64,000 bases of DNA. Source: Acidimicrobiales bacterium (GTDB lineage: Bacteria > Actinomycetota > Acidimicrobiia > Acidimicrobiales > Aldehydirespiratoraceae). Position 1 is the first letter of the stretch; each line of letters opens with the position of its first letter. The translations under genes were made by a program, and so were the position numbers. The stretch lies in assembly GCA_029247365.1 (NCBI GenBank), contig JAQWLJ010000002.1, positions 73,111 to 137,110 on the forward strand, in the 5' to 3' direction. A model generated the notes under the pieces. It ran no database searches, had not been told where the DNA came from, and saw only the letters and a list, made by a program, of their open reading frames with translations. Below, piece after piece: positions 22,804-52,386 of the stretch.

Positions 22804-22815
22804 GAGCGATCCTCC

Positions 22816-23882: not shown

Positions 23883-23890
23883 AGCGAGTC

Positions 23891-32716: not shown

Positions 32717-32717
<1 letters not shown>
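31089..32717 (-). CDS. nuoM: NADH-quinone oxidoreductase subunit M (14-subunit set), His/Asp-rich C-terminal tail
   Basis: 542 aa. FPVHTWLPDAH block. The tail reads DLDHLNHGDDHGDDPDHEEEDH. Confidence 0.9.
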
Positions 32718-35011
<2,294 letters not shown>

Positions 35012-35025
35012 GGTCAGTCCCTCAC

Positions 35026-35343
35026 CTAGCCCCTGAGCAGCGCCACGTCATCGGCGGTCGCATCCCGGCGACGACGGTTGATCGCCACAACGATGGCGAG
35101 GCCGACGACGACCTCCACCGCAGCGACGACGAGAACGAAAAACACGGCCAACTGGCCACCGACGTCATTGAGGTCGGCACCGAAGGCCACAAACGAGATA
35201 TTGACCGCGTTGAGCATCAGTTCGACACACATGAACATCACCAGCGGGTTGCGTCGGATCAGCAGACCGGCTGCGCCGATGGCAAACATCAGCGCCGACA
35301 GCACGAGGTAGTACGAGGTCGTGAGTTCGAGTTCGGCAGGCAT
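35026..35343 (-). CDS. nuoK: NADH-quinone oxidoreductase subunit K (14-subunit set)
   Basis: 105 aa with 3 TM segments and a [12 protein letters not shown] block. Confidence 0.9.
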
Positions 35344-37846: not shown

Positions 37847-40320
37847 GCGCGCTCCACTCGCACGTCGGTCACCAACGTCGTGGCGTCGATCAGTCGGTTG
37901 GCGTTGACGTCTGGCGCGTTGGCTGGGATGGCCGCAGAGCCAACCGGCACCCCGACATCGATCGCCACCGGCGCCATGAGTTCGCCTTTGCCGGACAAGA
38001 CCTTGACGATCGCACCGGGTTCGACACCAAGCTTGTCGAAGTCAGCCGGGTTCAGCCGGACCTGCACTGCTGCGGCGAGACCAGCACTCGCCGGGCAGGC
38101 CTGGACCATCGTGCCGTTGTCGTACATCCGTCGGGTGGCAACGAGCCGAAGCGAATACGCATCGTTCGCTGGAGCCATCGAACCGCTTGCCGTGGGCGCC
38201 GAGATCGACCCTCCCGACAGCAGGACGCCCTCGACCGGGTCGGTGGCGAGCGCCTCTTCGGTGACCGTGGCGTGCACATCAGATACTGCGGCCATCTCAG
38301 CGCGGATGGCCTCGACGGATGCGAGACCGAGATCGACGCCGAGGCGGCTACCAATCTCTGCTGCAATCTGCCAGTCGGCGCGGGCGGTACCCGGGGCCGT
38401 AACTTTTTGCGCACTGATGCTTACTCGGCCTTCCAGGTTGGTAAAGGTGCCGGCGGACTCGGTGGGAGCCGCAGCTGGGAGCACGATGTGGGCGTAGCCC
38501 GTGGTCGAGGCATTGGGCAGGGTTTCAACTGCGAGAATCGTGCCGACCCCGGCCAGTGCTCGTTGGGCGAGTTCATTGTCGGGGAAGTCAGCGAGTGGAT
38601 CGGCGCCGAGTAGCACCAAGACGTCGAGCGAGCCGGCGGCAGCAGCAGTCAGCATCGCCGCGGTATCCATGCCGGCTGTGGTCGGCACCGAGCCCCAGAT
38701 GTCGGCAACTGCGCCAGCATCAGTAAGCGTACGGCGTCCGGGCAGCAGGCCCGGAGCCATGCCAGCCTCGAAGGCGCCGTGCACGTTGCCGCGCCGCAGC
38801 GCCGACAGGAAGCCCACCCCATCGATGGCATTCAGTGCGACGGCTGCGTCGACGACCGCTTCGGCGGATTCAGCGGTCGAAGCTCGGCCGAGCACGACGG
38901 TTACCGGTCCGCTGATGGCGTTCGCTGCATCGGCAATCGCGCTGGCAGACACGCCAGCCGCCTCGATAGCGGTGCCCCGGCGAGCCGATGCAAGCGCATG
39001 GGCCAACTGACCGACTTCTCCGGGGCGCGGATGCAGCGAGTGGGCGGCGATCCCACTCAAGCCGGTGCGGGTCGGCGTCAGCTCGATGAGTGTCGTGCCG
39101 TCGTTCACGACCGCATGACGCAGCCGAAGGAACAGCGCGCCAAGATCTTCCTTCGGGTCGGGTCCAACGAGGATGACCGTGCCCCCCGGCTGACAGGCGT
39201 CGGCGATCGTGGCGCGGGGCAACCCAAGCACAACCTCGGCGGGGATCCCATCGCTGAGCTGCGCATCGACGTTGTCGGTGCCGATGACCCCCTTGGCCAG
39301 CTTGGTCCACGCGTACTGTGACTCGTTGGTGAGGCGGGCGCCGCCCACGACACCGACCCGGGCCGGATCGACACCGGCGAACGCGGTGGCCACACGGCTC
39401 ATCGCCGCACCCCAACCAATCGGGGCGAGTTCGCTGTCGGCGCCGGCTCGCACGAGCGGCGTGGTCAGACGGGCGTCGGCGTTGAGCGCCTCGAACCCGA
39501 AGCGCTCCTTGTCGGACAACCAACCCCAGTTGACAGCATCGGAGTCGACGCCGAGCAGGCGCAAGACCTGATTGCGGCTCGATTGCACCGTGACGCGGGA
39601 ACCAACCGAGTCGGTCCAAGCGGTCGAGACCGTCTCTTCGAGATCCCAGGGGCGGGCCTTAAAGCGGTAAGGCTTGGCGGTGAGGGCACCGACCGGGCAG
39701 ATCTGCACGGTGTTCCCGGAGAAGTACGAGGCAAACGGCTCGTCGGGGAAGGTGTTGACCTGGGTGTTGTTGCCCCGGTCCATGAAGTGGATCAGCGTGT
39801 CACCGGCGACCTCGTCGGCGAAGCGGGTGCAGCGATCGCACAAGATGCAGCGCTCGCGGTCGAGGTAGACCGTGTCGCTGATCGGCATCGGCTTCTCGAA
39901 GTGGCGCTTCTCTTCAACAAACCTCGACTCACCCGGCCCGAAAGCCATGGTCTGATCCTGAAGTGGGCATTCGCCGCCCTTATCGCAGACCGGGCAGTCG
40001 AGCGGATGGTTGATCAGCAGGAACTCGAGCACACCGTCCTGGGCCTTCTTGGTGGCATCGGATTCGGTGTCGACGGTCATGCCATCGGAAACCGGAATCA
40101 TGCAGCTCGGCTGCAACGCCGGGCCGCGGCCCGAGTCGACCTCGACAAGGCACATCCGGCACATGCCGACCGGCTTCATACGCGAGTGGTAACAGAATCG
40201 GGGGATGTACGTGCCGGTGCGCTCGGCGGCATCGATGAGGAGTTCGCCGGGCGCAGCGTGGATCTCGACGCCGTTGATGGTGACGGACACCGTGCTGGTG
40301 TCGTTCTGCGTGTCGGTCAT
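37843..40320 (-). CDS. nuoG: NADH-quinone oxidoreductase subunit G
   Basis: 825 aa. CYHSRMKPVGMCRMCLVE, HPLDCPVCDKGGECPLQD and CILCDRCTRF cluster motifs. Confidence 0.9.
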   Translation of the reverse strand: MTDTQNDTSTVSVTINGVEIHAAPGELLIDAAERTGTYIPRFCYHSRMKPVGMCRMCLVEVDSGRGPALQPSCMIPVSDGMTVDTESDATKKAQDGVLEFLLINHPLDCPVCDKGGECPLQDQTMAFGPGESRFVEEKRHFEKPMPISDTVYLDRERCILCDRCTRFADEVAGDTLIHFMDRGNNTQVNTFPDEPFASYFSGNTVQICPVGALTAKPYRFKARPWDLEETVSTAWTDSVGSRVTVQSSRNQVLRLLGVDSDAVNWGWLSDKERFGFEALNADARLTTPLVRAGADSELAPIGWGAAMSRVATAFAGVDPARVGVVGGARLTNESQYAWTKLAKGVIGTDNVDAQLSDGIPAEVVLGLPRATIADACQPGGTVILVGPDPKEDLGALFLRLRHAVVNDGTTLIELTPTRTGLSGIAAHSLHPRPGEVGQLAHALASARRGTAIEAAGVSASAIADAANAISGPVTVVLGRASTAESAEAVVDAAVALNAIDGVGFLSALRRGNVHGAFEAGMAPGLLPGRRTLTDAGAVADIWGSVPTTAGMDTAAMLTAAAAGSLDVLVLLGADPLADFPDNELAQRALAGVGTILAVETLPNASTTGYAHIVLPAAAPTESAGTFTNLEGRVSISAQKVTAPGTARADWQIAAEIGSRLGVDLGLASVEAIRAEMAAVSDVHATVTEEALATDPVEGVLLSGGSISAPTASGSMAPANDAYSLRLVATRRMYDNGTMVQACPASAGLAAAVQVRLNPADFDKLGVEPGAIVKVLSGKGELMAPVAIDVGVPVGSAAIPANAPDVNANRLIDATTLVTDVRVERA

Positions 40321-41744
40321 CAGCCGGCCTCGCTGTTGCCAGGAGCGGAGCTCATGAGTGCAGCGCTGACCGGGATGGAGTCGCGCTTGGTGATCTTGGC
40401 CTCGTATTCATGGCGGAACCGACGAATCGTCGAGGTGATGGGCGCAACCGACGACGGGCCAAGGGGGCAGATCGTGGTCTGTTTGGGCGGGAACGGCACA
40501 GCCGCAAGACCCTGATTCGGATCGGCCGCGACCGGGTACGGGCCAGGGCTGATGTTGTCGGCAATGTCGAGCAGCATGTCGATGTCGCTCGGTCGGCCCT
40601 CGCCGTCGAGGATGCGTTGCAACACTCGCTCTTCCCAGGTGGTGCCTTCACGGCAGGGGGTGCACTTTCCGCACGACTCACGAGCGTAGAAGCGGACGAG
40701 TCGAAGAGCGGCCTTGACCGCATCGGTGGTTTCGTCCATCACAATGATGGCGCCGGAGCCGAGCATCGAGCCCTCTCCGCTGACGACGCGGCCCTCGAGT
40801 GGTACATCGAGCTGCTCAGGGAAGAACCAGGGCGCAGATCCACCGCCCGGCACGAACATCTTCAGCCCGTTGTCCTCGCGAATGCCCTGGCAGAAGTCGT
40901 CGCCATAGAACAGATCGCGGAAGGTGGTGACGCCCTGCTCGATCTCGTACACACCGGGTCGCTTCACGTGACCAGACACCGCCACCATGCGGGTGCCCGG
41001 CGAGGCCTCGGAACCGAACTGCTTGTAGGCCTCGGCGCCGTTCATCATCAGCCACGGCAGGTTGCTGAGTGTCTCGACATTGTTGACGATTGTCGGCTGG
41101 CCGTAGAGCCCGATGGCCGCCGGGAAGTACGGAGGCTTGAGGCGGGGCATGCCTCGGTTGCCCTCGAGCGACTCGATGAGCGCCGTCTCCTCGCCGACGA
41201 TGTACGCCCCTGCCCCCCAGGTGAGGGTGATGTCGACGCTGAAGTCAGTGCCGAGGATGTTCTTCCCGACGTAGCCCTCGGCATAGGCGTCGTTGAGCGC
41301 CTGCGCGATACGTTCCTGTGCGAGCGCCATCTCACCGCGGACATAGAGGAAGCACTGGGCGAGGCCCAAGGCGTAGCACGTGATGAGGCAGCCCTCGATC
41401 AGTTGGTGGGGATCGCGCTCCATGAGGAGACGATCCTTGTAGGTGCCCGGTTCGGACTCGTCACCGTTGACAACGAGGTAGTAGGGGAACTTGCCGGGCG
41501 GCATGAAGCCCCACTTGACGCCGGCGGGGAAGCCAGCACCGCCCCGACCGAGGACGGTGGCTTCACGGACCTCGTCGTGGACCTCAGCCGGCGTGCGGTC
41601 GAGCGCGCGGCGCAGACCCTGGTAGCCGTCGGTCGCCTCGTAGCGGTCGAGAGTGAAGCTGTCACCGTGCTCGAAGCGCGACGTAACGATCTTGGGTCCG
41701 CCGTTGTCGACATAGCCGGGAGCGTGGGGAACGGAGTGGCTCAC
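40320..41744 (-). CDS. nuoF: NADH-quinone oxidoreductase subunit F
   Basis: GRGGAGFPAGVKW (FMN/NADH site) and ESCGKCTPCREG (N3 cluster). Confidence 0.9.
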   Translation of the reverse strand: MSHSVPHAPGYVDNGGPKIVTSRFEHGDSFTLDRYEATDGYQGLRRALDRTPAEVHDEVREATVLGRGGAGFPAGVKWGFMPPGKFPYYLVVNGDESEPGTYKDRLLMERDPHQLIEGCLITCYALGLAQCFLYVRGEMALAQERIAQALNDAYAEGYVGKNILGTDFSVDITLTWGAGAYIVGEETALIESLEGNRGMPRLKPPYFPAAIGLYGQPTIVNNVETLSNLPWLMMNGAEAYKQFGSEASPGTRMVAVSGHVKRPGVYEIEQGVTTFRDLFYGDDFCQGIREDNGLKMFVPGGGSAPWFFPEQLDVPLEGRVVSGEGSMLGSGAIIVMDETTDAVKAALRLVRFYARESCGKCTPCREGTTWEERVLQRILDGEGRPSDIDMLLDIADNISPGPYPVAADPNQGLAAVPFPPKQTTICPLGPSSVAPITSTIRRFRHEYEAKITKRDSIPVSAALMSSAPGNSEAG

Positions 41745-42385
41745 ACTTCCTCACCTTCCGCGGCTCCAGCAGGGGCCGGCTCATCATTGCGGGCCAACCA
41801 GACGGGACGCACGTTGGCCTGCTCGGGGGGCACGATGCCGGCCATAGCGTCGACCGGAATGTGCTGACGAACGCGGCCGAGCGTGCCGTGCTCGGGGATG
41901 TCGTCGGCGCGACTATTGCGAATGTCGTCGATCAGATCGTCGAAGTCCTCGTCGGTGACGCGTAGGCGGTAGCGGTAGTTGACCTGGAGACACGGGGCCT
42001 CGGTGCACGCAGCGATGCACTCGACGTCTTCGATGGTGAACATGCCGTCGGCGGTGGTGCCACCGGCCTTCACGCCGAGCGTCTTCTCGGCGTGGGCGAG
42101 AAGTTCCTCACCGCCAAGGAGTTGGCACGACAGGTTGGTGCACACGTTGACCATGTACTTTCCGACCGGGTGGAACTTGAACATCTCGTAGAACGACCCG
42201 GTTCCCTTGACCTCGGCCGGGGTGGTGTCGGTCAGCTCTGCGATCTGGCGCATGGCTGCGTCGGTGACCCAGCCCTCCTGCTCCTGGGCTAGGTGCAACA
42301 GCGGGATCAGGGCCGACTTGGCGACCGGGTAACGCGAGATGATCTCATCGGCGATCGCGAGATTGTCGGGCGTGAAGTAACTCAT
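41741..42385 (-). CDS. nuoE: NADH-quinone oxidoreductase subunit E
   Basis: CTNLSCQLLGG and CIAACTEAPC 2Fe-2S ligand blocks. Confidence 0.9.
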   Translation of the reverse strand: MSYFTPDNLAIADEIISRYPVAKSALIPLLHLAQEQEGWVTDAAMRQIAELTDTTPAEVKGTGSFYEMFKFHPVGKYMVNVCTNLSCQLLGGEELLAHAEKTLGVKAGGTTADGMFTIEDVECIAACTEAPCLQVNYRYRLRVTDEDFDDLIDDIRNSRADDIPEHGTLGRVRQHIPVDAMAGIVPPEQANVRPVWLARNDEPAPAGAAEGEEV

Positions 42386-43680
42386 CGGTCGACCTCGCCC
42401 ATGATCGGGTCGACACTCGAGATGATGGCGACGCCGTCGGCGATCATGCCGCCCTGCATGAGGTGCGGCATGGTCTGCAGGTTGATGTAGCTCGGGCCGC
42501 GCACGTGCATGCGATATGGCGTGGAGCTGCCGTCGCTCACCATGTAGATACCGAGTTCGCCGCGCGGCGACTCGACCGCTGCGTACGCCTCGCCCTCGGG
42601 CACCTGGTAGCCCTCGGTGAAGATCTTGAAGTGATGAATCAGCGCTTCCATCGACTGGTCGATACGCACCCGAGGGGGGGGCGTGACCTTCTTGTCCTGT
42701 ACGCGGTAGTCCCCAGCCGGCATGCGATCAAGAATCTGTTCGACGATGCGCATCGACTCGCGGATCTCGTTGAGGCGGATCGCATAGCGGTCGTAGCTGT
42801 CGCCGAACGAGCCGACGATGACATCGAAGTCAACCTCGGGGTATGCGAGATACGGCTCGTCGCGGCGAAGATCCCATGCGTAACCAGTGGAACGCAGGAT
42901 CGGACCAGTGGCCGATAATGCCAACGCCTCGTCGGCGTTGAGCACACCCACACCTTGGAGTCGCTCGCGCCAGATCGGCTGGCCGGTCATGAGGATGTCG
43001 TACTCCTCGAGGCGGGGTGGGATCAGCTCGAGCAGGTGCTCGACGTCGGCCTGCCAACCGTCGGGGAGATCGGCCGCCACACCGCCGGGGCGGATGTAGT
43101 TATGGTTCATGCGAAGGCCGGTGACCTTCTCAAAGAACCGGAGAACTTCCTCTCGTTCCCGCCAGCCGTAGATCATCATCGACACGGCGCCGAGGTCCAT
43201 GCCGTTGGTGGCCATGAACAGCAGATGCGAGCTCATGCGGTTGAGTTCGCTCATCAGCATGCGGATCCACACAGCACGCTCCGGGACTTCGATGCCAAGG
43301 AGCTTCTCGGTCGCGAGGCTGAACGCCAGCTCGGTGAAGAGTGGCGAGGCGTAGTCCATGCGGGTGACGTTGGTGCAGCCCTGCAGGTAGGTGAGCTGCT
43401 CAGCCTGCTTCTCCATCCCCGTGTGGAGATAGCCGACAACCGGCTTGCTGCGCAGGACGGTTTCGCCCTCCATCTCGAGCATGAGGCGCAGCACGCCGTG
43501 GGTCGACGGGTGCGACGGACCCATGTTGAGAAGGACCCGCTCATCTTCATCGGGCGCGTCAGGGTCAGCGCCGATCATTGCGGCTTCGGCTTCGCTCAGG
43601 CGGAGAACCGCGGAGTCGTCGCCGCGACGCTTCACCCGCTCGGCGCCGTCAAGAACCTCAGTGTTTTCGGTAACCGTCAT
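42382..43680 (-). CDS. nuoD: NADH-quinone oxidoreductase subunit D (14-subunit set)
   Basis: MGPSHPSTHGVLRLMLE block and a C-terminal DPIMGEVDR. Confidence 0.9.
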   Translation of the reverse strand: MTVTENTEVLDGAERVKRRGDDSAVLRLSEAEAAMIGADPDAPDEDERVLLNMGPSHPSTHGVLRLMLEMEGETVLRSKPVVGYLHTGMEKQAEQLTYLQGCTNVTRMDYASPLFTELAFSLATEKLLGIEVPERAVWIRMLMSELNRMSSHLLFMATNGMDLGAVSMMIYGWREREEVLRFFEKVTGLRMNHNYIRPGGVAADLPDGWQADVEHLLELIPPRLEEYDILMTGQPIWRERLQGVGVLNADEALALSATGPILRSTGYAWDLRRDEPYLAYPEVDFDVIVGSFGDSYDRYAIRLNEIRESMRIVEQILDRMPAGDYRVQDKKVTPPPRVRIDQSMEALIHHFKIFTEGYQVPEGEAYAAVESPRGELGIYMVSDGSSTPYRMHVRGPSYINLQTMPHLMQGGMIADGVAIISSVDPIMGEVDR

Positions 43681-44201
43681 CGTTCGTTGCTCGCTGCTTT
43701 GAACTGCACAGGGATCGAACCGATGGCGTAGTCCTTGCGGAGCGGATGCCCTACCCAGTCCTCGGGCATCAGAACCCGGCTCATGTCGGGGTGGTCGGTG
43801 AACTCAATGCCGAACATGTCGAAAACCTCCCGCTCGAGATTTTCGGCGCCAGGCCAAAGATCGAACAGCGTGGGGATGACTGGCTCATCAGCATTGACCT
43901 GCATCCGAATACGAACGCGTTCGCGGGTGGTGTGGTTGATCAGCTGGGTGACGAGCTCGAAGCGCTCGGCCTCAATGCCGGCAGGCAGGTTCCGGGGCGC
44001 GGCATAGGTGAGGTAGTCGACCGCGGTCAGATCGACGAGCTGGCCGAAACCGTCGGCCTGCGCCTCCGTGCAGCCGTCGAGGTAGGTGTCGACAAACGCG
44101 TGGAGCACGCCGTCACCGGCGTCGACCATTCCGTATCGCATCGCGACCGGGGTCGCGGCCTCGTCCGTCGCCTCCTCGGCGATTTCCGGTTCGTCGCTCA
44201 C
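43677..44201 (-). CDS. nuoC: NADH-quinone oxidoreductase subunit C (14-subunit set)
   Basis: 174 aa with a LEREVFDMFGIEFTDHPD block. Confidence 0.9.
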   Translation of the reverse strand: MSDEPEIAEEATDEAATPVAMRYGMVDAGDGVLHAFVDTYLDGCTEAQADGFGQLVDLTAVDYLTYAAPRNLPAGIEAERFELVTQLINHTTRERVRIRMQVNADEPVIPTLFDLWPGAENLEREVFDMFGIEFTDHPDMSRVLMPEDWVGHPLRKDYAIGSIPVQFKAASNER

Positions 44202-44203
44202 CG

Positions 44204-44797
44204 TCAGCCCCCGATCGTCAGGCCGGCGGTCTGACCGTCGCGCTGCTCGATGGTGATACCGGCGCCGCCCCCGTTTGCCTGACGGCGCTGGGTGAGTTCA
44301 CCGGATTGGATCTTCTCGTGCACAGTGAAGATCGCGTGAAGGAGCGTTTCGGGGCCCGGAGGGCAACCCGGCGCGTACACGTCGACGGGCACAACCTGAT
44401 CGACGCCCTGCACGATCGCGTAGTTGTTGAACATCCCGCCGCTCGATGCGCACACGCCCATGGAGATGACCCATTTGGGCTCCATCATCTGGTCGTAGAC
44501 CTGTCGCAGCACTGGCGCCATCTTCTGGCTCACACGGCCCGCAACGATCATGAGATCGGCCTGACGGGGGGACGCCCGGAAGGTTTCCATGCCGTATCGG
44601 GCGAGGTCGTAGTGCGCCGCGCCGGTGGCCATCATCTCGATCGCGCAACAGGCGAGGCCAAACGTCGCTGGCCACAGGCTGCGGGCGCGGGCCCACTGGA
44701 CGAGGTTCTCGATGTTGCCGGTGAGGAAGTTGTGCTCGAACCCCTCGAGGCCGTGGTCGGCAATATCGCCGACGTCGCCGATCCCAGGAATCTTCAT
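44204..44797 (-). CDS. nuoB: NADH-quinone oxidoreductase subunit B (14-subunit set)
   Basis: [21 protein letters not shown] and GCPPGPE blocks. Confidence 0.9.
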
Positions 44798-45252
44798 CAG
44801 GCCGCCTCGCGTCCGTCGGTACCGACCCGTCGGATCGTGGACTCGGCGGTGCGTTCAGGCGACACAGCCCCTGACGGCGCCATGGTCTGTTTGAGCGGAC
44901 CCCACTCCAGGGCACCGTTGGAGATCAGGTACACGAACGACTCGAAGACAGCGAATGTGAACACCATGATCACGACGAGGCCGAAGAAGCCGAGACCCCC
45001 GAAGGCCACCGCATACGGGTAGAAGAAAATGATCTCAATGTCGAAAACGATGAAGATCATCGCAACGAGGAAGAACTTCACCGGAAAACGCTCGGGCGTC
45101 TCTTTGGTCGGCACGATGCCGCACTCGTAGGCCGCACGCTTGGCGTGCGTGGGGTTACGGGGAGCCAAAAGTCCTGAGGCGATGAAACTGCCGGACGCAA
45201 ACAAGAATGCCAGCACGAACAGCGCCAGCAATGGGAGGTACTGGCCCAGCAT
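44797..45252 (-). CDS. nuoA: NADH-quinone oxidoreductase subunit A (14-subunit set), extended C-terminus
   Basis: YECG and [10 protein letters not shown] blocks. 151 aa. Confidence 0.9.
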
Positions 45253-45255: not shown

Positions 45256-46374
45256 TTACGCCCCTTCGAACTCGGCCCGGCGCGCCATCACGAGTTTGTC
45301 CCGCTCATGAAGCATGTAGCAGAGGGCGAAGAAGATCAGCAGGGAGCCGATCGTGACCATGGCCGGCCGGAAACGAACGTTGCCGAGGTCACGGATCATC
45401 ACGACCGAGACGACTGGCTCTTCGGTATCGACCACGGGACGCTGGGGAGCGGTACCCGGCAGGTTGGTGATCGACTCCTCGGTAACTTGCTGAAGCTGGA
45501 CGATGCCGTAGCGGGTCGGATGGGTGATCTGCGCGGTCTGGCGGACCTTGGTCCAGACGCGGTCCCAGACATTCGGATCGTCGGGCAGGCCTTCCTTGCC
45601 GCCGATGGTGAAGGCATCGAGCAGCTTGAACTCCACCTGACTACCGAACGAGAAGTCGTTCGATTCAAGGACAATCGCAATCGCCGATGCTTGCGCTTCG
45701 CCGGATTCGGCAGTGGAGAGGAGGGTCCAGCCGCCGAGCTCGTCAGCGTCCGGATCGATGATCCCCGGGGCGACCGCAGCAAGCTCGGAGAGTGTCGTGG
45801 CCTCGTTCTTTGACTGCTCTTCGGCGGCGAGGTCGTCGATCTCCGCGTCGCTGAGACCTTCCGTCTGATCGGCGGTGAGGGTGTCGGCGGTGACGGTGCC
45901 AAACTCGAGCCAGGCTGTCTGCACCTCACCCAGGTGGGCCACCTCGTCGCTGGTCAGGCCACCTGTTCCCATGGTGAGCCAATTCGACCCATAGTCAGAC
46001 TCGGCAGCCGCGCCGGCATCGACCACGATCTCGTGAGCAGTCGGCAGCGACTCCGCCTGGAGAATGTTGGCCTCGTCGAGCGCGGCGTAGGTCAGGCGAC
46101 CCTCGTCGTCGGTTCCCTCGACGATCTCAACCTCGACCCAGGTAGGGGCATCCCCCGCCCAGCCGATGCCGTAGATCCACCAGATTGAACCCATGATTGC
46201 CATCCAGCCGAACAAGGCAGCAAGCGCAAGAAGGGTGCCGAGGCGGGGACCGGAGTTGGAGCTCAGGAGCAACCAAACCGAGCCCATCAAGGTGACCGCC
46301 ATGGCGAGCACCGCAAGGAAACCGCGGATTTCAGGGTCCCAGGCAAGACCTGCGATCAGGTCGAGCATCTCCAT
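45256..46374 (-). CDS. Membrane protein with large acidic soluble domain, unknown function
   Basis: 372 aa with N-terminal hydrophobic segments, an acidic middle and a C-terminal TM. The start shares 1 nt with the cytochrome c stop. The stop lies 3 nt before the nuoA start. Confidence 0.55.
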   Translation of the reverse strand: MEMLDLIAGLAWDPEIRGFLAVLAMAVTLMGSVWLLLSSNSGPRLGTLLALAALFGWMAIMGSIWWIYGIGWAGDAPTWVEVEIVEGTDDEGRLTYAALDEANILQAESLPTAHEIVVDAGAAAESDYGSNWLTMGTGGLTSDEVAHLGEVQTAWLEFGTVTADTLTADQTEGLSDAEIDDLAAEEQSKNEATTLSELAAVAPGIIDPDADELGGWTLLSTAESGEAQASAIAIVLESNDFSFGSQVEFKLLDAFTIGGKEGLPDDPNVWDRVWTKVRQTAQITHPTRYGIVQLQQVTEESITNLPGTAPQRPVVDTEEPVVSVVMIRDLGNVRFRPAMVTIGSLLIFFALCYMLHERDKLVMARRAEFEGA

Positions 46375-47864
46375 CAGAGTGTCCTCTCGAACGCAACGAT
46401 CGCATCGATCTGGTCAGCGGTGAGTAGCGCCGGGTACCGGAACTCGACGCCGGTACCCGGGCCCATACCAGGGCCCTGGGGGTTCGATTCGGTGAGCGGC
46501 CCGAAGCCGGGCATCTGGCCATTGCCACCCGAGCCGCCACGGCCGTAGGGAGCACCCATGGCCTGGCCCCGCTCGATGAAGGTCGCGTGACCCGCAGCCG
46601 TCTCGAACTGGTCGAGTGTGGAGCCGCCACGGAGGTTCGGGCCAAAGAAGCCACCACCCTGGACGTACTCGTCGAGGATGGCTTCGTCGGTGCCATTCGC
46701 CTCGATCATGTACGGGCCGGTCGCATCAAAGCTCCAGCCATAGGTATGGCAACGGGCGCAGCTATAGGTACCGGCAGCCGCCTCGTTGGCGAACAGGATT
46801 TCGCCGTACTGCAGGTAGGCAGCCTGACCCTCGAACGAGTCAGGGGTCGACAGGATCTCGAGCGCCGCGAAGCGCCACTTTTCCTCGTTGCCCCCGTCGT
46901 CGAGCGACGGGTCGGCCTCGAGAGCAATCTCTCGAGCGGTCTGCTGGGCGGACTGGACGTCGGCCCACCAGGCGTCGAATGCGGACTGCAGCGGCTGGTC
47001 TGCTGCGCTGTTCGACGTCTTGAGCGCCTCTCGCGCCGCCATATCGGCGTCGCATTCCGGCACCCCATCGGCTGCAGCACAGTCGAAACCGAACTCGTCA
47101 CGAGCGATGAGCCTCACAGCCCACGCGGCCTCGTCAGCGCTGGCCTGCGCAGCGCGCAGATCGACGGCCCACGACTCGTCGCTCGTTGCCATGATCAGAT
47201 CTTTTGCACCGTCCTCAACTCCGCTCGCGACCTGCTCACGGATCTCATCTTCGGTGATCTGGATGTTGCGAAGATAAAAGAGGATCTCTTCGAGTTGCTG
47301 ATCGGTGAGCGGACCACCGCCGCCGGCACCCCAGGCCGGCATGACACCGTTGCGGCCGTAATTCAGGGTGTGGAGAACTTCGTCTTCGGTGTAGCGCGAC
47401 AGCACAGTGTCGATTGCAGGCGCCTTCCATGACACTTGGGCGACGAACTCACCCGACGCGGATGTGATCGCGGTGCTGACCGCACCGCCCGAGCCCTCGG
47501 GGCCGTGACAGCTGACGCACTGGGCGCCCTCGACGTAGATCTCCTCGCCACGGTTGGTGAAGATCCGCCAGGTATCGATGTCGCGGCCTTCGTGCCGGCC
47601 CGGCTCGCCAAGCCAGTAGAGCGGCAACGTGACCGCTGTAATAGTGAGCAGCACAAGGCTGGTGCCAAGCGCTAGGTCGAGCTTCTTGCCCTCAAGATCC
47701 TCGTCGGACAGGTACGGCTTCCGGTTCGAGGCAAGCTCGAGCTCAGATCCGATCTCATCTCGAGCTGAGCGGATGTTGAAATAGATGTAGACGAGCCCAC
47801 CAAAAAAGACGATCGCCAAAATGACGAGGCCGATGGTTCGTTGTGTTGATGCAGCGAACAACAT
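46374..47864 (-). CDS. Membrane-anchored dihaem c-type cytochrome (two class-I domains split by a long linker)
   Basis: CVSCH (about aa 116) with GVMPAWG, and CARCH (about aa 369) with GQMPGFG. Two N-terminal hydrophobic helices. Confidence 0.8.
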   Translation of the reverse strand: MLFAASTQRTIGLVILAIVFFGGLVYIYFNIRSARDEIGSELELASNRKPYLSDEDLEGKKLDLALGTSLVLLTITAVTLPLYWLGEPGRHEGRDIDTWRIFTNRGEEIYVEGAQCVSCHGPEGSGGAVSTAITSASGEFVAQVSWKAPAIDTVLSRYTEDEVLHTLNYGRNGVMPAWGAGGGGPLTDQQLEEILFYLRNIQITEDEIREQVASGVEDGAKDLIMATSDESWAVDLRAAQASADEAAWAVRLIARDEFGFDCAAADGVPECDADMAAREALKTSNSAADQPLQSAFDAWWADVQSAQQTAREIALEADPSLDDGGNEEKWRFAALEILSTPDSFEGQAAYLQYGEILFANEAAAGTYSCARCHTYGWSFDATGPYMIEANGTDEAILDEYVQGGGFFGPNLRGGSTLDQFETAAGHATFIERGQAMGAPYGRGGSGGNGQMPGFGPLTESNPQGPGMGPGTGVEFRYPALLTADQIDAIVAFERTL

Positions 47865-47909: not shown

Positions 47910-48794
47910 CTAGTGCGAAGACTGGCCGATGCAGTTGGGCCCCTCGGCCTCCTGGCCGGTGGTATTGGTGCCGATCGGCGGGCCCTGGATGATCGTGCCG
48001 GTGTCGACGGTGAGGGTGCCGGCCGCATCGACACTCATGGCGAAGCGGTCCATGCCGCGCGGGGCTGGGCCACCACGCTTCTCGCCTACGCGGTTGTACT
48101 GCGAGCCGTGGCAAGGGCACTCAAACCACTGTGAGGTGACGCACTCGGGAACACGGCAGCCGAGATGCGGACACTTCTGATAGATCGCGATGACGCCGCC
48201 GTCGAGGCCAAGGTTGATACCCGCTTCCATACCAGCGAGCTCAGGCGCCGAGTAGGCGACCCGCGCCTTCTCAACCGCTCCGTTGGGATACTCGGTGAGC
48301 CACATCCGACCCTCGGCGCGGTACAAAAAGCCGTTGCTGTTGCGGATCTCTGTGAGCACGTCGCTGACGAAACCAACCTTGATAGCGGAACCGAAGCCAC
48401 CGCCGAGTTGGGGCCAGAGGAAGGCAATGCACGCCAGACCGAAGCCACCGAGGCCGATCTGCATCATGAGGATGATCGTTCGGTTGAAGAACTGACGTCG
48501 ACTGACCCCGATGACCTCGGGATCTGGCGGCACGTACGGAGCCGGTGGGGCCGACTGCCGGGCGGCAAGCACCAGCTCATTAGACGCAGCCTTGCGCTCA
48601 AGGACCTGTGCCTTCTCGACCTGCTTACCGGTGAGCGCTGACTCCTCGCCGAGCACGGTCGACGGCTTGTCACGCTTGCGCGTTTCTCCGGACAGCACAC
48701 CGACAGCCTCGTCAGCGTCCCGACCCTTGAGGGTCACGAGCGCGGCGAGGCCACCGAGGACCACCAACACGATGAGAGCGATTGCGAGTGCCAT
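47910..48794 (-). CDS. Rieske [2Fe-2S] subunit of a Rieske/cytochrome b complex
   Basis: CPHLGC ... CPCHGSQY boxes and an N-terminal TM anchor. Confidence 0.85.
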   Translation of the reverse strand: MALAIALIVLVVLGGLAALVTLKGRDADEAVGVLSGETRKRDKPSTVLGEESALTGKQVEKAQVLERKAASNELVLAARQSAPPAPYVPPDPEVIGVSRRQFFNRTIILMMQIGLGGFGLACIAFLWPQLGGGFGSAIKVGFVSDVLTEIRNSNGFLYRAEGRMWLTEYPNGAVEKARVAYSAPELAGMEAGINLGLDGGVIAIYQKCPHLGCRVPECVTSQWFECPCHGSQYNRVGEKRGGPAPRGMDRFAMSVDAAGTLTVDTGTIIQGPPIGTNTTGQEAEGPNCIGQSSH

Positions 48795-48810: not shown

Positions 48811-49596
48811 TCAGAGCTCGAAGAACAGGCCGGCTTCCCATGGGAAGACGAAGTTGAAGCCAGGACCGCGGAAGAAAGAACCGATCATGACGAGTACCGC
48901 CCAGAACATCAGATGGACGGTCATGAGCGAGATCGCAAACTTGCGGTCTTCGGGCTTCGGGGACGGGTTGCGGTCGATGTACGGCGCAAACATGAGGATG
49001 AAGAGGCCGATACCCGGGATGGTCACGCCGGCGACCATCGGGTGGAACATGGTGAGCAGCTCCTGCAGGCCGAGGAAATACCACGGCGCCTTGGAGGGGT
49101 TCGGGGTCTCGTTGAAGTTGGCCAACTCGAGCAACGGGGCGTTGACAAAGATCGAGAAGATCAGGGTGAATGCCGTGATGAAGAGCGCTGCGGCGAACTC
49201 GACCACGAGCAGGTGCGGCCACGTGTGGACCTTGTCCTGAGGCAAGCCCTTGACGTCTTGAATCGAACCGGACTTGACCACCGTAAGCAGGCGCTGGGTG
49301 TGACCACCCGGGCCGGTCGGGACCGGACCGCCACCCGAGGCTGCGGGCGCAGCCGCGGTGGGCGCCGTGGCGACGGCGGTGCCGCCACCGGCGTCGTCGC
49401 CACCATCGGCCTTGGCCTTGGCCGCGCGCGAACGCTCAAGCAAGTGCGCGGGGATCTTGCTGGCTGCTTCCTGCTGCTCGGCCGACATTGCCTCGACAGG
49501 AGCTTCCGGTGGAGCATCGGCAGCAGCCTTGGCGGCCGCGGCCTTGGCGCGAGCCTCTTCGGCTCGCTTCCGGAGATGTTCGGGGACTTCGGTCAT
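48811..49596 (-). CDS. Cytochrome b C-terminal part / subunit-IV (PetD-like), with ~110-aa Ala/Lys-rich N-terminal extension
   Basis: HTWPHLLVVEF and SKAPWYFLGLQELL (Qo-site PEWY position) blocks. Confidence 0.8.
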   Translation of the reverse strand: MTEVPEHLRKRAEEARAKAAAAKAAADAPPEAPVEAMSAEQQEAASKIPAHLLERSRAAKAKADGGDDAGGGTAVATAPTAAAPAASGGGPVPTGPGGHTQRLLTVVKSGSIQDVKGLPQDKVHTWPHLLVVEFAAALFITAFTLIFSIFVNAPLLELANFNETPNPSKAPWYFLGLQELLTMFHPMVAGVTIPGIGLFILMFAPYIDRNPSPKPEDRKFAISLMTVHLMFWAVLVMIGSFFRGPGFNFVFPWEAGLFFEL

Positions 49597-49614
49597 CGAC
49601 TTCTCTCCTTCGCC

Positions 49615-50409
49615 TTAGAGCGGACCTGAGATGCCGCCATCTTTGCGGACCCGCCAGAAGTGGATCGCCATAAAGATGACGAGCACGAACGGAAGCAAGA
49701 GGACGTGCAGCACGTACCAACGTAACAATGTGTCGGTGCCGATCTCGACGCCACCGAGCAGCACGAATCGAACCTGTTCACCAAAGACTGGCGTGTACCC
49801 CATCATGTTGGTACCCACCGTCACCGCCCAGAGGGCCAACTGATCCCAGGGCAAGAGGTAGCCGGTGAACGAAAGCAGCAAAGTGAACTGTAGTAGATTG
49901 ACGCCGATCACCCAGTTGAACTCTCGAGGGGCCTTGTAGGCGCCGTGGTAGAAGACGCGCGCCATGTGCAAGAACACCGACAGGACCATGAGGTGCGCGG
50001 CCCATCGATGCATGTTTCGCACAAGCAGACCGAACGTCACCGAGTTCTGCAAGGTGTAGATGTCGTCCCAGGCCGCGGCGGCGGTCGGACGGTAGAAGAA
50101 CATCAAGAAGATGCCGGTAACCGTCAACAGGATGAAGAGGAAGAAGCTCAGGCCGCCAAGGCACAGCGTGTAGCTGACCTTGACCGCATGACGCTTCACC
50201 TTCACCGGGTGCAGGTGGTACAGCACCGAGTTCATGATCACATAGCTGCGGTTTCGGGGGCTGTCGGTGTAGCCCTTTCGAAAGATCGAGCCGGGGCGGA
50301 AGATGGAGTTCCAGGCCTGGCTGCCCTGCACCTGGTCGGTGAGGTTCGCCATCTGGTCCTGCATCCGCTGCGGTAGCGGCTTCTTGACTTCGTCATCGGT
50401 GGTCGCCAT
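49615..50409 (-). CDS. Cytochrome b6-type (N-terminal four-helix) subunit
   Basis: Haem ligand pairs MHRWAAHLMVLSVFLH (H-x13-H) and HVLLLPFVLVIFMAIH (H-x14-H). TLCLGG block. Confidence 0.85.
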   Translation of the reverse strand: MATTDDEVKKPLPQRMQDQMANLTDQVQGSQAWNSIFRPGSIFRKGYTDSPRNRSYVIMNSVLYHLHPVKVKRHAVKVSYTLCLGGLSFFLFILLTVTGIFLMFFYRPTAAAAWDDIYTLQNSVTFGLLVRNMHRWAAHLMVLSVFLHMARVFYHGAYKAPREFNWVIGVNLLQFTLLLSFTGYLLPWDQLALWAVTVGTNMMGYTPVFGEQVRFVLLGGVEIGTDTLLRWYVLHVLLLPFVLVIFMAIHFWRVRKDGGISGPL

Positions 50410-50438: not shown

Positions 50439-50855
50439 TCAGCCGAGACGCATTCCGTATCCGTAGCCGTGCGAGTTGGTGCGCTGGTGAGCATCGCCAC
50501 CGGCGGCAGGATCACCGATCTTGCCGAGGATGATGACGCCCGTGGGGCACCGATCGACACAGAGTGCACACCGGGTGCACACGTCGTCATCAATCGTAAA
50601 GATCACTTTGTCGTTAGGGTCGTCGCCCGGGAGTTCGGTACCGATCGCCTCATCGACGGCATCGGTTCGCACCATGTGGATGCACTTCCACGGGCAGATG
50701 TCAACGCAGCCCTCGCACATGATGCACTCGGACTGGTCGATATGGATGAACTGCTTTGGCTTGACCTGCGAGGTGAGCCACGCAGCGTCGACCTGCTGCA
50801 GGACGTAGTCGTCGCGGAACTCCGGGAGCGGAGGATTCGCGTCGGTCGTGGTCAC
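50439..50855 (-). CDS. 2x[4Fe-4S] dicluster ferredoxin-like protein
   Basis: CIMCEGCVDICP and CTRCALCVDRCP motifs. GTG 50855 overlaps the upstream stop (GTGA). Confidence 0.75.
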   Translation of the reverse strand: MTTTDANPPLPEFRDDYVLQQVDAAWLTSQVKPKQFIHIDQSECIMCEGCVDICPWKCIHMVRTDAVDEAIGTELPGDDPNDKVIFTIDDDVCTRCALCVDRCPTGVIILGKIGDPAAGGDAHQRTNSHGYGYGMRLG

Positions 50856-51304
50856 GACTCTGCCCCCTCCTTCACCAGAGGACGACCAAAGTGGCTGCGC
50901 GCGACCGGCTTCTCGGCCTGCTGCTCGCCACGCTTTTGCCAGGCGGACCACATCCAGATGTTGCCGCCGAGGGCAACGATGTAGATGCCGACAGCGATGA
51001 GGTCACGCAGGACGATGTAGGTGATGCGGATCGGCGACCAGCCGCCGTCCTCTTGGCTCTTCAGAATGTCACCGGGGCCAAAGAGGATCTTGTCGACGCG
51101 CCAGTTGAGTTCATTGTCGGCCCAGGTCAGCCACTGATGCGGCACGACGCCGTACACCCAGAACATGAGGAAGAAGACGACCAGCGAGCCCATCATCGCC
51201 TCGCCCCAGGTCAGGACTTGGTCGGCCGGGCGGCGCTTCTGGTATGCGAGGATGCCACCCACGATGAGGGCAGTGACGATCAGCGATGTCACGAAGGCAA
51301 CCAC
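50852..51304 (-). CDS. Small membrane protein (about 3 TM), unknown function; first gene of the array
   Basis: 150 aa. GTG start with an AGGAG 8 nt upstream (51312-51316 on the + strand). Confidence 0.55.
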   Translation of the reverse strand: MVAFVTSLIVTALIVGGILAYQKRRPADQVLTWGEAMMGSLVVFFLMFWVYGVVPHQWLTWADNELNWRVDKILFGPGDILKSQEDGGWSPIRITYIVLRDLIAVGIYIVALGGNIWMWSAWQKRGEQQAEKPVARSHFGRPLVKEGAES

Positions 51305-51591
51305 GCGTCAACTCCTGAAGGCAGGATGGGCTCACGGACTTCGTGAATCCATGCACAAGTGTAGTCCGGTAGGCCAGCGGCCCTCGGATCCGGGGACAGA
51401 TTTATCACGCAGTTTTCCGATTTCAGACATCCGGCGGGCAGCAAATTTGTCGTCGGAAATTCATCCGATGATTCCGCTCCAGCTTGGTCGGACGTGCGAC
51501 ACTGCCTCTATCCTCAGGTGGTCGACTGTCACGCTGCCTCGCGGCGTTGCAACTCTTCTCCTGTAACCCTTCCCATCCAGCGGAGACCCTG
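51305..51591. promoter_or_regulatory. Divergent intergenic region between the respiratory array and the monohaem cytochrome c gene
   Basis: 287 nt and locally AT-richer. 7-nt inverted repeat TTTCCGA (51414-51420) / TCGGAAA (51453-51459). No promoter hexamers could be assigned with confidence. Confidence 0.35.
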
Positions 51592-52386
51592 GTGACCGAA
51601 GTACCCGAGCACCTTTTACAGCGAGCCGCCGAGGCCCGCGCTCGCCTCTCTGGAGGGCCCGCGCCCGACTCAGGCGGAGGCGAGAGCGCTGCCGCACCGG
51701 TTCCGGCCGTCGCCGCGCCCGACCCCACGCCGGCCGTGCCCGAGGAGCCCAAGGCTCCCGAGCCGGTTGCGCCCTACGTCGAGGCACGTATTCGCCGTAA
51801 GACGCTGCCGATCTGGATCATCCCCGTTCTCATCTTCCTGCCGTTCTGGGCGATCTACTACGTCGGCTACCTCGAGAACCCCACCGTTACCGGTGGCTTC
51901 GCCTTCGAAGGGGGAGAGGCCTACGGCGGCCAGTGCGCCGGCTGCCACGGCGGTGCAGGCGGCGGTGGCACCGGTCGCCAGCTCAGCGGAGGCGAGGTCA
52001 TCGCCACCTTCCCCGCCAACGACGAGGGCGTCGCCCAGATGGTGTACTGGGTATCCAGCGGCACGGCGGGCGCAGTCGACGGCGTGTACGGCGACCCTGC
52101 CCGCAGCGGCGGCCAACGCCAGGCCGGATCGTTCGGCGTCATGGGCGGATTCGGTGGCAGCCTGTCGACCGAGGAACTCGCTGCAGTCGTGTACCACGAG
52201 CGTGCGGCCTTCGGTAATCTTGATGACGCCACAATCGAGCACGAGATTCACCTGCTCGAAGAACTGGTGCATGTGGTCGACGACGCTGGCGAGAGCTTCG
52301 ACGGCGCCTCCCTTGACGACGTCCGTCTCTGGGTCGACGCAGCAAGCGCAAAGCTCGTCGCCGACGGCGAAATGGCTGCCGAGTAG
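51592..52386 (+). CDS. Membrane-anchored monohaem c-type cytochrome
   Basis: GTG 51592 preceded by GGAGA. One TM (LPIWIIPVLIFLPFWAIYYVG), one CAGCH motif, and an acidic C-terminal domain. Confidence 0.75.
   Translation: MTEVPEHLLQRAAEARARLSGGPAPDSGGGESAAAPVPAVAAPDPTPAVPEEPKAPEPVAPYVEARIRRKTLPIWIIPVLIFLPFWAIYYVGYLENPTVTGGFAFEGGEAYGGQCAGCHGGAGGGGTGRQLSGGEVIATFPANDEGVAQMVYWVSSGTAGAVDGVYGDPARSGGQRQAGSFGVMGGFGGSLSTEELAAVVYHERAAFGNLDDATIEHEIHLLEELVHVVDDAGESFDGASLDDVRLWVDAASAKLVADGEMAAE

Follow-up and report, generated by a model that had tools for sequence, protein, structure and literature searches.

A split cytochrome b6 and subunit IV pair of the APWY clade, with a candidate haem ci cysteine, in Acidimicrobiales

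Introduction

The closest described systems to the locus studied here are the cytochromes b of the APWY clade. Kao & Hunte (2014) described this clade as one of split cytochromes b carrying a CxGG motif; in the passages of that paper that deal with it, the clade is drawn from mixed phyla, Actinobacteria are listed within it, and the Acidimicrobidae genome of Ilumatobacter coccineum is counted among the split forms (PMC4122944). WCMGG is the commonest form of helix A in the clade without being a defining one (PMC4122944). More generally, the presence of CxGG correlates with a short, split cytochrome b (PMC4122944, PMC5600118), and a Tyr or Phe directly before the cysteine is conserved in the lineages with proven haem ci (PMC4122944). 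The APWY clade appears to be the same as subfamily G of Dibrova et al. 2013/2017, with which the cytochrome b/SUIV complexes of anammox bacteria have been grouped (PMC5600118). As of 2014 there were no biochemical data on any APWY-clade complex (PMC4122944). Our search of the literature found none published since, and it found no work on the respiratory chain of Acidimicrobiia specifically.

We analysed a stretch of 64,000 nucleotides (the window) from a genome of the order Acidimicrobiales (class Acidimicrobiia, Actinomycetota). All positions below are those of the window.

Results

A split cytochrome b6 and subunit IV

Two open reading frames 18 nt apart encode the cytochrome b of this locus. 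Both lie on the minus strand, exactly where a first-pass annotation of the DNA had placed them (48811-50409), and they carry the following features.

49615..50409, minus strand: cytochrome b6-type subunit, 264 aa, four helices (Pfam PF00033/PF13631, NCBIfam ExtP, PDB b6)
50152..50172, minus strand: YTLCLGG motif; Cys83 (codon 50161-50163) is the candidate covalent haem ci ligand (alignment to b6 FYCLGG/Cys35)
49966..50010, minus strand: helix B haem ligands His134-x13-His148 (aligned to b6 His86/His100)
49660..49707, minus strand: helix D haem ligands His235-x14-His250, with b6-type spacing (HVLLLPFVLVIFMAIH), kept in 80/80 loci
48811..49596, minus strand: subunit IV (PetD-like), 261 aa (Pfam PF00032, Cytochrom_B_C; profile matches; hydropathy)
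49078..49089, minus strand: APWY Qo (Qp) motif, residues 170-173, replacing PEWY
49552-49587 and 49420-49455 (span 49420..49587), minus strand: two copies of (T)E[IV]PEHL[LR]KR[AS]..A within the cytoplasmic extension at the N-terminus of subunit IV, conserved across related loci

The 264-aa protein matches the Pfam families Cytochrome_B (1.4e-44) and Cytochrom_B_N_2. Its top PDB matches by phmmer are the cyanobacterial and plastid b6 proteins, with which it is 42% identical over 186 residues (E 4e-47) and unambiguously aligned. The 261-aa protein begins with a cytoplasmic extension of about 120 residues rich in Ala, Pro and Gly and continues with three transmembrane helices; its profile matches both bc1 cytochromes b, in their C-terminal half, and b6f subunit IV (1q90_D). 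A b6 together with a separate three-helix subunit IV is a split cytochrome b, and the original reading of the pair as a b6 gene and a PetD-like gene was borne out by the Pfam and PDB matches, by the C-terminus GISGPL that the protein has in common with PDB and plastid b6, and by the match to 1q90_D. The b6 spacing claimed for helix D held as well, His235 and His250 being aligned to the b6 ligands.

Overall, the likeness to the cyanobacterial and plastid b6f complex (PetB/PetD/PetC) covers the four helices, the H-x13-H and H-x14-H pairs, the cysteine at the Cys35 position, the C-terminus, the separate subunit IV and the Rieske box CPCHGSQY. By contrast, the window has APWY where b6f has PEWY, a dihaem cytochrome c where b6f has cytochrome f, and a respiratory rather than photosynthetic setting, and it adds about 48 N-terminal residues to b6 beside the extension of subunit IV. 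In profile alignments APWY is in register with PEWY and PVWY, its second residue is Pro, and the claim that this Qo motif contains no acidic residue was thus upheld.

Relatives of the b6 protein were found in at least 586 species genomes, and the best 80 of these at least 586 were used for the comparison of loci. All of the 80 are labelled Acidimicrobiia or Actinomycetota, except for two short MAG contigs and one 'uncultured bacterium', and the divergence of b6 across the Acidimicrobiales species reaches about 84% identity overall. Wherever a locus contains the whole subunit IV gene, APWY is kept (72/72), and with the conservation of YTLC[L/F]GG and H-x14-H in 80/80 loci this shows that the motifs are no chance occurrence. 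Seeming losses of CxGG in five loci and of APWY in four turned out to be artefacts of open reading frame extraction or contig ends. Judging by these loci, the split b6/subunit IV arrangement is universal in Acidimicrobiales and nothing out of the ordinary there.

The cysteine of helix A

The window's VSYTLCLGG aligns to VNIFYCLGG of b6 with no gaps around helix A (phmmer), which places Cys83 on Cys35. The proposed homology of the two cysteines is confirmed by this gap-free alignment; an alignment separating them, named beforehand as an outcome that would tell against the proposal, was not seen. The match to the context (Y/F)C(L/F)GG, which had been quoted for the haem ci ligand, proved only partly correct: the window reads T-L-C-L-G-G, with Leu in place of the preceding Tyr or Phe, so that only the C-x-G-G core fits. 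Relative to the APWY clade, YT[L/F]CLGG in these loci also differs from the typical WCMGG, which we found in other representatives.

The motif YTLC[L/F]GG is kept in 80/80 loci, where the cysteine and both following glycines are invariant in Acidimicrobiales species despite b6 identities of about 84%. This invariance and the published correlation of CxGG with the short, split form (PMC4122944, PMC5600118) speak against a second reading, in which the cysteine is kept but haem-free and each b6 of the complex has just its two b haems, as in the members of the clade that bear Gly. Within the wider clade Cys is often replaced by Gly, many close relatives carrying YTWGLGG, so the cysteine is dispensable for some members. 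The haem-free reading can further appeal to the Leu that stands here for the aromatic residue of the proven haem ci lineages, and to the scan of the proteins of the Rieske/b6 cluster against Pfam and NCBIfam, which turned up nothing of the CCB type that matures haem ci; two membrane proteins of the cluster matched neither a CCB-type nor any other family. To our knowledge, however, Firmicutes have no CCB either, and because of this its absence from the cluster is weak evidence. We consider a haem-free Cys83 improbable.

Placement in the APWY clade

We compared the b6 protein with the models of neighbouring families. It passes the cut-off of NCBIfam ExtP (NF040969; 305 bits, cut-off 290) and fails those of the Firmicute b6 (PRK03735; 212 bits, cut-off 325) and of actinobacterial QcrB (NF050120; 120 bits, cut-off 500). 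Among the best 150 representatives of clusters at 50% identity, scores ranged from 182 to 508 bits, and in a separate PDB search cyanobacterial b6 reached about 164 bits. Of the representatives that extend into the subunit IV part, most carry APWY. In a neighbour-joining tree, computed with no bootstrap, the window's b6 lies inside the APWY radiation and far from plastid b6, and the nearest relatives outside Acidimicrobiia are APWY-bearing cytochromes b. These representatives come from metagenomic sources, and the phylum composition of the clade is taken from the literature.

The pair also differs from both known Gram-positive types. The Firmicute QcrA/QcrB/QcrC complex ('b6c') is likewise Gram-positive, of a non-photosynthetic b6 type and presumably oxidises menaquinol. 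Covalent haem ci is proven in Bacillus, and Cys83 of the window is a candidate ligand. Firmicute QcrC is a subunit IV fused to cytochrome c, and the Qo motif is PDWY, whereas subunit IV of the window lacks CxxCH and the dihaem cytochrome c is a separate protein; the window's b6 also falls short of the PRK03735 cut-off. With the actinobacterial bcc complex (QcrCAB) the locus shares its phylum, a dihaem cytochrome c and a Rieske protein with extra N-terminal transmembrane segments. There, however, QcrB is unsplit (~540 aa), has no CxGG cysteine and carries PDWY.

The first-pass annotation was therefore right that this is not a canonical QcrB, the gene being split and the QcrB score far below its cut-off, and the host, which it had named conditionally, is indeed an actinobacterium. 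Its view that lineage and architecture make an unusual combination does not hold: the pair belongs to a published clade that includes Actinobacteria, and the architecture is the norm in Acidimicrobiales. The annotation had itself named placement within an already described split clade as evidence against its view, and this is where the pair falls. A split b6 with the haem-ci cysteine and APWY is real and was correctly recognised, but it is ordinary and already published.

The passed ExtP cut-off raises one further identity, that of an ExtP/ExtQ-type module for selenite/tellurite reduction or extracellular electron transfer. NCBI records of Acidimicrobiales homologues are automatically named in this way. 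Nevertheless, subunit IV failed the ExtQ model (NF040970; 49 bits, cut-off 150), and the cluster lacks the defining neighbours of the extHIJKLMNOPQS cluster of Geobacter, namely the multihaem proteins ExtKL/M/N/S, the porin ExtI and the rhodanese ExtH, and is joined to complex I genes instead. In Geobacter, too, what ExtP does is a matter of inference. The gene context effectively rules out a selenite/tellurite module, and we regard this identity as extremely improbable.

The automatic NCBI name 'selenite/tellurite reduction operon cytochrome ExtP' is misleading for the Acidimicrobiales proteins.

The gene cluster and its neighbours

The pair lies within a compact cluster that runs, in order, from a small membrane protein through a 2x[4Fe-4S] protein, b6, subunit IV, a Rieske protein and a dihaem cytochrome c to a second membrane protein, followed by nuoA-N. 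The gaps between genes are 1-45 nt and contain no terminator-like site. The features around the pair are as follows.

50852..51304, minus strand: membrane protein of 150 aa, encoded at the head of the cluster, with about three transmembrane helices and no family match
50439..50855, minus strand: 2x[4Fe-4S] ferredoxin-like protein, 138 aa (Pfam Fer4 families)
47910..48794, minus strand: Rieske iron-sulfur protein, 294 aa (Pfam PF00355; NCBIfam b6f PetC is the top match but below threshold)
48156-48173 (CPHLGC) and 48102-48119 (CPCHGSQY), minus strand: Rieske cluster boxes
46374..47864, minus strand: membrane-anchored dihaem cytochrome c, 496 aa, with CVSCH at residue 116 and CARCH at residue 369 (Pfam Cytochrome_CBB3/Cytochrom_C)
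45256..46374, minus strand: conserved 372-aa membrane protein of no assigned family, its gene flanked by those of cytochrome c and nuoA
29401..45252, minus strand: full complex I operon, with nuoA-H and nuoL-N identified
51484..52386, plus strand: divergent mono-haem cytochrome c (CAGCH) with one transmembrane helix, present in most related loci

Gene order is identical in every one of the 80 loci whose contig is long enough. The 150-aa membrane protein is present in 77/80, the other three contigs ending short of the gene, and the dihaem cytochrome c gene is syntenic across related loci. The start of nuoA lies 3 nt past the preceding gene, with no terminator-like site between them, and in each locus of sufficient length the cluster is followed by nuoA and nuoB. 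The Rieske protein has an N-terminal transmembrane helix, a twin-arginine motif (SRRQFF) at residue 98 and a second transmembrane helix. Boxes like its CPCHGSQY usually go with a high potential, which would be unusual beside a menaquinone pool. The mono-haem cytochrome c has a cytoplasmic N-terminus with an EVPEHLL motif (51601-51636), as in subunit IV. This common motif, the co-encoded Fe-S protein and the unbroken run into nuoA-N are the less described parts of the cluster.

Taken together, these observations very probably identify the pair as the cytochrome b6 and subunit IV of the Rieske/cytochrome b complex that is standard in Acidimicrobiales, a member of the APWY clade. This assignment is built on homology, on motifs in register, on their conservation, on synteny and on membership of the clade, and the complex would be a complex III, not necessarily the only one in these genomes.

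A proposed mechanism

As a menaquinol:cytochrome c oxidoreductase the complex would run a Q cycle, with a quinone that we take to be menaquinone from the taxonomic descriptions of cultured Acidimicrobiia. Turnover is predicted in the direction of quinol oxidation, at a Qo pocket that b6 and subunit IV would build together. The Rieske cluster would take up the first electron and hand it to its likely acceptor, the dihaem cytochrome c. The second would cross the membrane through haems bL and bH, held by the pairs His134/His235 and His148/His250, and pass from bH to a haem ci thioether-linked to Cys83, where quinone would be reduced on the cytoplasmic side. Since Pro occupies position 2 of the Qo motif, no Glu or Asp side chain offers the quinol proton an exit there, and the proton would leave via the backbone, water or another residue.

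The Fe-S protein and the anammox comparison

The 138-aa Fe-S protein could alter this scheme. Its gene stands directly upstream of b6 in 80/80 loci (59-90% identity), and its GTG start codon and the stop codon of the preceding gene overlap (GTGA), which couples the two translationally. We looked for a transmembrane helix, a signal peptide and a hydrophobic segment in the protein and found none, which predicts a cytoplasmic location. Its top PDB matches are the polyferredoxin modules of FwdF and MvhB, which act as Fe-S wires, and it is on FwdF, as a structural homologue, that the Fe-S wire of the anammox complexes was modelled (PMC12954380). At another locus (L084), a GltD-like NAD(P) oxidoreductase of 666 aa has a C-terminal dicluster domain to which the protein also aligns, even across the exceptionally long stretch that separates its two Cys motifs, and the L084 gene occupies the same place upstream of a b6 that is ~54% identical to the window's.

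All of this is consistent with a protein that docks on the n-side of b6 and trades electrons with haem bH or ci. The complex would then run no plain Q cycle: its low-potential branch would deliver electrons to a redox partner in the cytoplasm or receive them from one, as a minimal form of the NAD(P)-linked Rieske/cytochrome b complex put forward for anammox bacteria or an analogue of ferredoxin-driven quinone reduction by b6f. The N-terminal extension of b6 is highly conserved, with a near-invariant His in F-L-H-x-H-P across the clade, which recalls the N-terminal His proposed in anammox models for an extra haem b (PMC12954380). However, His65 is a putative counterpart of the Kuenenia ligand, gene adjacency is the sole link of the Fe-S protein to the complex, and no FAD or NAD(P) domain accompanies the dicluster protein in the cluster. 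In other clade members the gene context is variable: some members are linked to cytoplasmic Fe-S/NAD(P) oxidoreductase genes, and of those we examined, one (L084) has such an oxidoreductase and the others have no Fe-S gene nearby. The Fe-S link is thus no property of the clade as a whole. Compared with the rest of the APWY clade, the accessory protein of the window is just a dicluster module, and its cluster is joined to nuoA-N. We hold an n-side Fe-S port of this kind to be tentative and, on balance, unlikely.

Database entries that join Fer4 to b6 were also inspected. Most of them are frameshift artefacts, with frameshifted linkers in P0005, P0006 and P0087 among others, and P0069 alone is plausibly in frame. 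The two genes are in one frame in none of the 80 genome loci. Gene fusion is therefore not used here as evidence.

Compared by description, the anammox NAD(P)-linked complexes (Kuste4569-74, Kustd1480-85) resemble the window in the co-encoded cytoplasmic FwdF-like Fe-S protein and in a Rieske protein of the high-potential type. They differ in having a FAD/NAD(P) domain and multihaem or HAO-like partners, which are absent here; the 138-aa dicluster protein of the window is homologous to the C-terminal domain of such an oxidoreductase at L084. Acidimicrobiales are presumably a lineage of aerobic heterotrophs, unlike anammox bacteria.

A still more elaborate arrangement can be imagined, which we regard as improbable. 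The seven proteins of the cluster would form one Rieske/b6 complex with an obligate Fe-S subunit wired to bH/ci on the n-side, perhaps via an extra haem on the N-terminal His; the complex would be expressed with complex I from one operon and perhaps be physically coupled to it, and the cytoplasmic EIPEHLL motifs of subunit IV and of the neighbouring cytochrome c would serve for docking.

Discussion

For the most part, our analysis confirms published comparative genomics, in that deep-branching Actinobacteria would use a b6-type complex with CxGG and APWY and not the mycobacterial QcrCAB bcc complex. The standard complex proposed here makes two questions, haem ci in the APWY clade and proton release with no acidic Qo residue, addressable in aerobic, culturable Acidimicrobiales. 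Specialists may wish to look at the Fe-S gene, present in every locus compared, and at the way in which the cluster leads directly into the complex I operon. If the wider arrangement were true, this would be a complex III with a second, low-potential electron port, the first of its kind in an abundant lineage of aerobic heterotrophs, and it would offer a culturable model of the proposed anammox-type mechanism.

Organization of the split cytochrome b and its gene cluster

The cytochrome b6-type protein (b6) and the PetD-like protein (subunit IV) are encoded by genes 3 and 4 of a tightly packed co-directional cluster, with 18 nt between them.

Genes of the cluster and the adjoining cytochrome c gene (window coordinates)
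50852-51304, minus: membrane protein, 150 aa (gene 1)
50439-50855, minus: 2x[4Fe-4S] protein, 138 aa, two CxxCxxCxxxCP motifs (gene 2)
49615-50409, minus: b6, 264 aa, Pfam Cytochrome_B (E 1.4e-44) and Cytochrom_B_N_2
48811-49596, minus: subunit IV, 261 aa, Pfam Cytochrom_B_C
47910-48794, minus: Rieske protein, SRRQFF Tat motif, boxes CPHLGC and CPCHGSQY
46374-47864, minus: dihaem cytochrome c, membrane-anchored
45256-46374, minus: membrane protein, 372 aa
51484-52386, plus: divergent mono-haem cytochrome c, single TM helix

In a PDB sequence search with b6, the top matches were cyanobacterial and plastid cytochromes b6 (E 4e-47 to 1e-45), with bc1 and actinobacterial bcc cytochromes b ranking far below. 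Identity to Nostoc b6 was 42% over 186 residues, and GISGPL forms the C-terminus of both the window protein and PDB cytochrome b6. The ligand spacings are those of b6, namely His134-x13-His148 in helix B and His235-x14-His250 in helix D (HVLLLPFVLVIFMAIH). The helix A alignment is gap-free and places window V78-S-Y-T-L-C83-L-G-G on b6 V30-N-I-F-Y-C35-L-G-G.

Subunit IV consists of a cytoplasmic Ala/Pro/Gly-rich extension of ~120 residues followed by three hydrophobic helices. A profile of this protein and 16 relatives matched the C-terminal half of bc1 cytochrome b and Chlamydomonas b6f subunit IV (1q90_D), with A170-P-W-Y173 in register with PEWY/PVWY. Just after APWY lies an invariant Q-E-L-L, which contains Glu179.

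The structural reading in the first-pass annotation was therefore right: the split into b6-like and PetD-like genes, the H-x14-H spacing and the non-acidic Qo motif were all confirmed. Of the proposed haem ci context, the cysteine stands, since Cys83 aligns with b6 Cys35. The residue directly before it does not fit, being Leu rather than the Tyr or Phe conserved in lineages with demonstrated haem ci.

Subunit IV carries two copies of the motif (T)E[IV]PEHL[LR]KR[AS]..A[KR]A in its cytoplasmic N-terminal extension (49552-49587 and 49420-49455, minus), and the mono-haem cytochrome c has one copy at its cytoplasmic N-terminus (51601-51636, plus). The motif is kept across related loci and might be a docking site shared by the two proteins.

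Linkage to complex I

The GTG start of the 2x[4Fe-4S] gene overlaps the stop of gene 1. At the other end of the cluster, nuoA begins 3 nt past the gene for the 372-aa membrane protein, and the full nuoA-N set (nuoA-H and nuoL-N being the members identified) then extends to 29401. No terminator-like site was found between genes of the cluster and the nuo operon; the four matches all lay inside coding sequence and were within random expectation. Because the genes are contiguous across this short gap and free of such intergenic sites, the sequence suggests that the Rieske/b6 cluster and the complete nuoA-N (29401-51304, minus) form one ~22 kb transcription unit for a complex III-type enzyme and complex I.

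The surroundings hold further genes. A second complex-I-like set at 17020-26957 (minus) comprises NuoC, NuoD, NuoH, NuoI-like, NuoL, NuoM and NuoN homologues; NuoE, NuoF and NuoG were not seen among the ORFs scanned, and the set may encode an enzyme of the 11-subunit type that takes its electrons from another donor. Between the two complex-I gene sets lies a sulfite-oxidase-like molybdoenzyme (27871-28971). On the other side, 52472-54846 (minus) adjoins the cluster and encodes a 213-aa DUF3726 protein and, overlapping it, a protein of 578 aa without a Pfam match.

Occurrence in Acidimicrobiales and relation to the APWY clade

With one genome taken per species and close relatives counted as a lower bound, a close relative of b6 is encoded in at least 586 genomes. 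The best 80 of these are 84-96% identical to b6 and come from Acidimicrobiales/Acidimicrobiia MAGs and from the cultured Aquihabitans sp. G128 and Salinilacustrithrix flava. A 'Ca. Microthrix sp.' MAG (96%) is the nearest of them, followed by Acidimicrobiaceae NAT108 (95%). When the cluster proteins were searched against these 80 loci with tblastn, the order membrane protein, Fe-S protein, b6, subunit IV, Rieske protein, cytochrome c, membrane protein, nuoA, nuoB was identical in every locus long enough. YTLC[L/F]GG and H-x14-H were present in all 80 b6 genes (80/80) and APWY in all complete subunit IV genes (72/72); loci that seemed to lack a motif reflected extraction artefacts or contig truncation. 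Since the same gene order and motifs recur across related loci, the split b6/APWY architecture is the rule for Acidimicrobiales and not a single-genome oddity.

Two loci were labelled otherwise, one in a Verrucomicrobiota MAG (L038) and one in an Acidobacteria MAG (L072). Both are short contigs with Acidimicrobiales synteny and a b6 92% and 86% identical to that of the window, respectively, and are probably mis-binned contamination.

APWY is one of six major Qo motifs, and the 'APWY clade' includes δ-Proteobacteria, Chloroflexi, Nitrospirales, Planctomycetes, Actinobacteria, Symbiobacterium and Thermaerobacter (Kao & Hunte 2014, PMC4122944). Split forms made up 5 of 618 actinobacterial homologues, in Rubrobacteridae and the Acidimicrobidae strain Ilumatobacter coccineum; as of 2014 no APWY-clade protein had been characterised, and haem ci binding 'needs to be experimentally verified' (PMC4122944). 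Dibrova et al. 2017 (PMC5600118) described a diverse subfamily G of cytochromes b, which we take to be the same group; short length correlates with CxGG, and genes for cytoplasmic NAD(P)/Fe-S oxidoreductases often co-occur with the subfamily. We found no paper on the Acidimicrobiia Rieske/b6 complex itself. The pair had been considered an unusual combination of lineage and architecture. That claim fails because a described split-cytochrome-b clade already includes this taxon (PMC4122944): the pair is of a known kind in a reported taxon, and the earlier interpretation is only partly supported.

Family assignment

Scores against NCBIfam models
ExtP (Geobacter cytochrome b beside a Rieske protein): b6, 305 bits, cut-off 290, pass
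Firmicute-type b6 (PRK03735): b6, 212 bits, cut-off 325, fail
Actinobacterial QcrB: b6, 120 bits, cut-off 500, fail
ExtQ: subunit IV, 49 bits, cut-off 150, fail

The Acidimicrobiales homologues P0014 and P0033 are named 'selenite/tellurite reduction operon b-type cytochrome ExtP' by the NCBI pipeline. This function is unsupported here, with subunit IV falling short of the ExtQ cut-off and the Geobacter ext neighbour genes all missing around window b6. The naming is likely a systematic over-annotation, as the score barely exceeds the equivalog cut-off and the context disagrees.

An exhaustive HMMER search with b6 found 150 proteins at 182-508 bits among 50%-identity cluster representatives; cyanobacterial b6 scored ~164 bits with the same query, but in the separate PDB search. 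The nearest representatives outside Acidimicrobiia (45-57% identical to b6) are of two kinds: long fused cytochromes b with APWY and a Gly at the Cys position (YTWGLGG), and short forms with YTWCMGG. In a neighbour-joining tree, a sketch without bootstrap support, the window b6 grouped with named Acidimicrobiales sequences inside the APWY radiation, far from plastid b6.

The Fe-S protein as a possible electron port

The 138-aa Fe-S protein has no TM helix or signal peptide. Across the 80 loci its conservation equals that of subunit IV, and its gene always lies directly ahead of b6. The protein might be an n-side electron port of the b6 complex. Its sequence matches (E 4e-12, 35% identity) the dicluster domain at the C-terminal end of a 666-aa GltD-like NAD(P) oxidoreductase at L084, the locus of a more distant clade member, and the alignment takes in the spacer between the motifs, which is unusually long. 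There the oxidoreductase gene occupies the place of the Fe-S gene, ahead of a b6 ~54% identical to ours. The best PDB matches are the polyferredoxin wires FwdF and MvhB; FwdF was also the template from which Fe-S clusters were placed when the anammox NAD(P)-linked Rieske/cytochrome b complexes were modelled with AlphaFold3, and each cytochrome b there is predicted to hold an extra haem b through an N-terminal His (2025 study, PMC12954380). The conserved N-terminus of b6 recalls this prediction, and its His65 motif may be a candidate counterpart. However, gene adjacency is the sole evidence for a port, other examined clade members lack such an Fe-S gene, and most database Fer4-b6 'fusions' are frameshifts.

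The N-terminal extension concerned (residues 28-66; 50212-50328, minus; GSQAWNSIFRPGSIFRKGYTDSPRNRSYVIMNSVLYHLHP) is nearly invariant across Acidimicrobiales. The core of the extension, W.SIFR...PRNR...N.FLH.HP, recurs across the APWY radiation and includes a near-invariant His (His65 of window b6, in L-Y-H-L-H-P).

As for the fusions, the 'Fer4-b6' or 'b6-subunit IV' database proteins P0005, P0006, P0087, P0010 and P0063 have frameshifted Arg/Pro-rich linkers and probably arose through errors in assembly or gene calling. P0069 is plausibly the sole real in-frame Fer4-b6 fusion among the homologues.

Proposed mechanism and significance

By homology, the core most likely works as a Q-cycle quinol:cytochrome c oxidoreductase. 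Quinol would be oxidized between b6 and subunit IV, the first electron passing to the Rieske cluster and on to the dihaem cytochrome c. The second would pass through bL and bH, and then haem ci if Cys83 is occupied, to quinone on the cytoplasmic side. Menaquinol is presumably the substrate of the Acidimicrobiales complex, given the chemotaxonomy of cultured Acidimicrobiia. The second residue of the Qo motif is Pro, which leaves no side chain there to accept the proton. Water- or backbone-mediated binding has been suggested for the APWY Qo site (Kao & Hunte, PMC4122944); Glu179 is, speculatively, a candidate alternative proton acceptor.

The value of the finding is carried by the haem ci question, with Cys83 as the candidate, by the invariant Fe-S gene and by the linkage to complex I.
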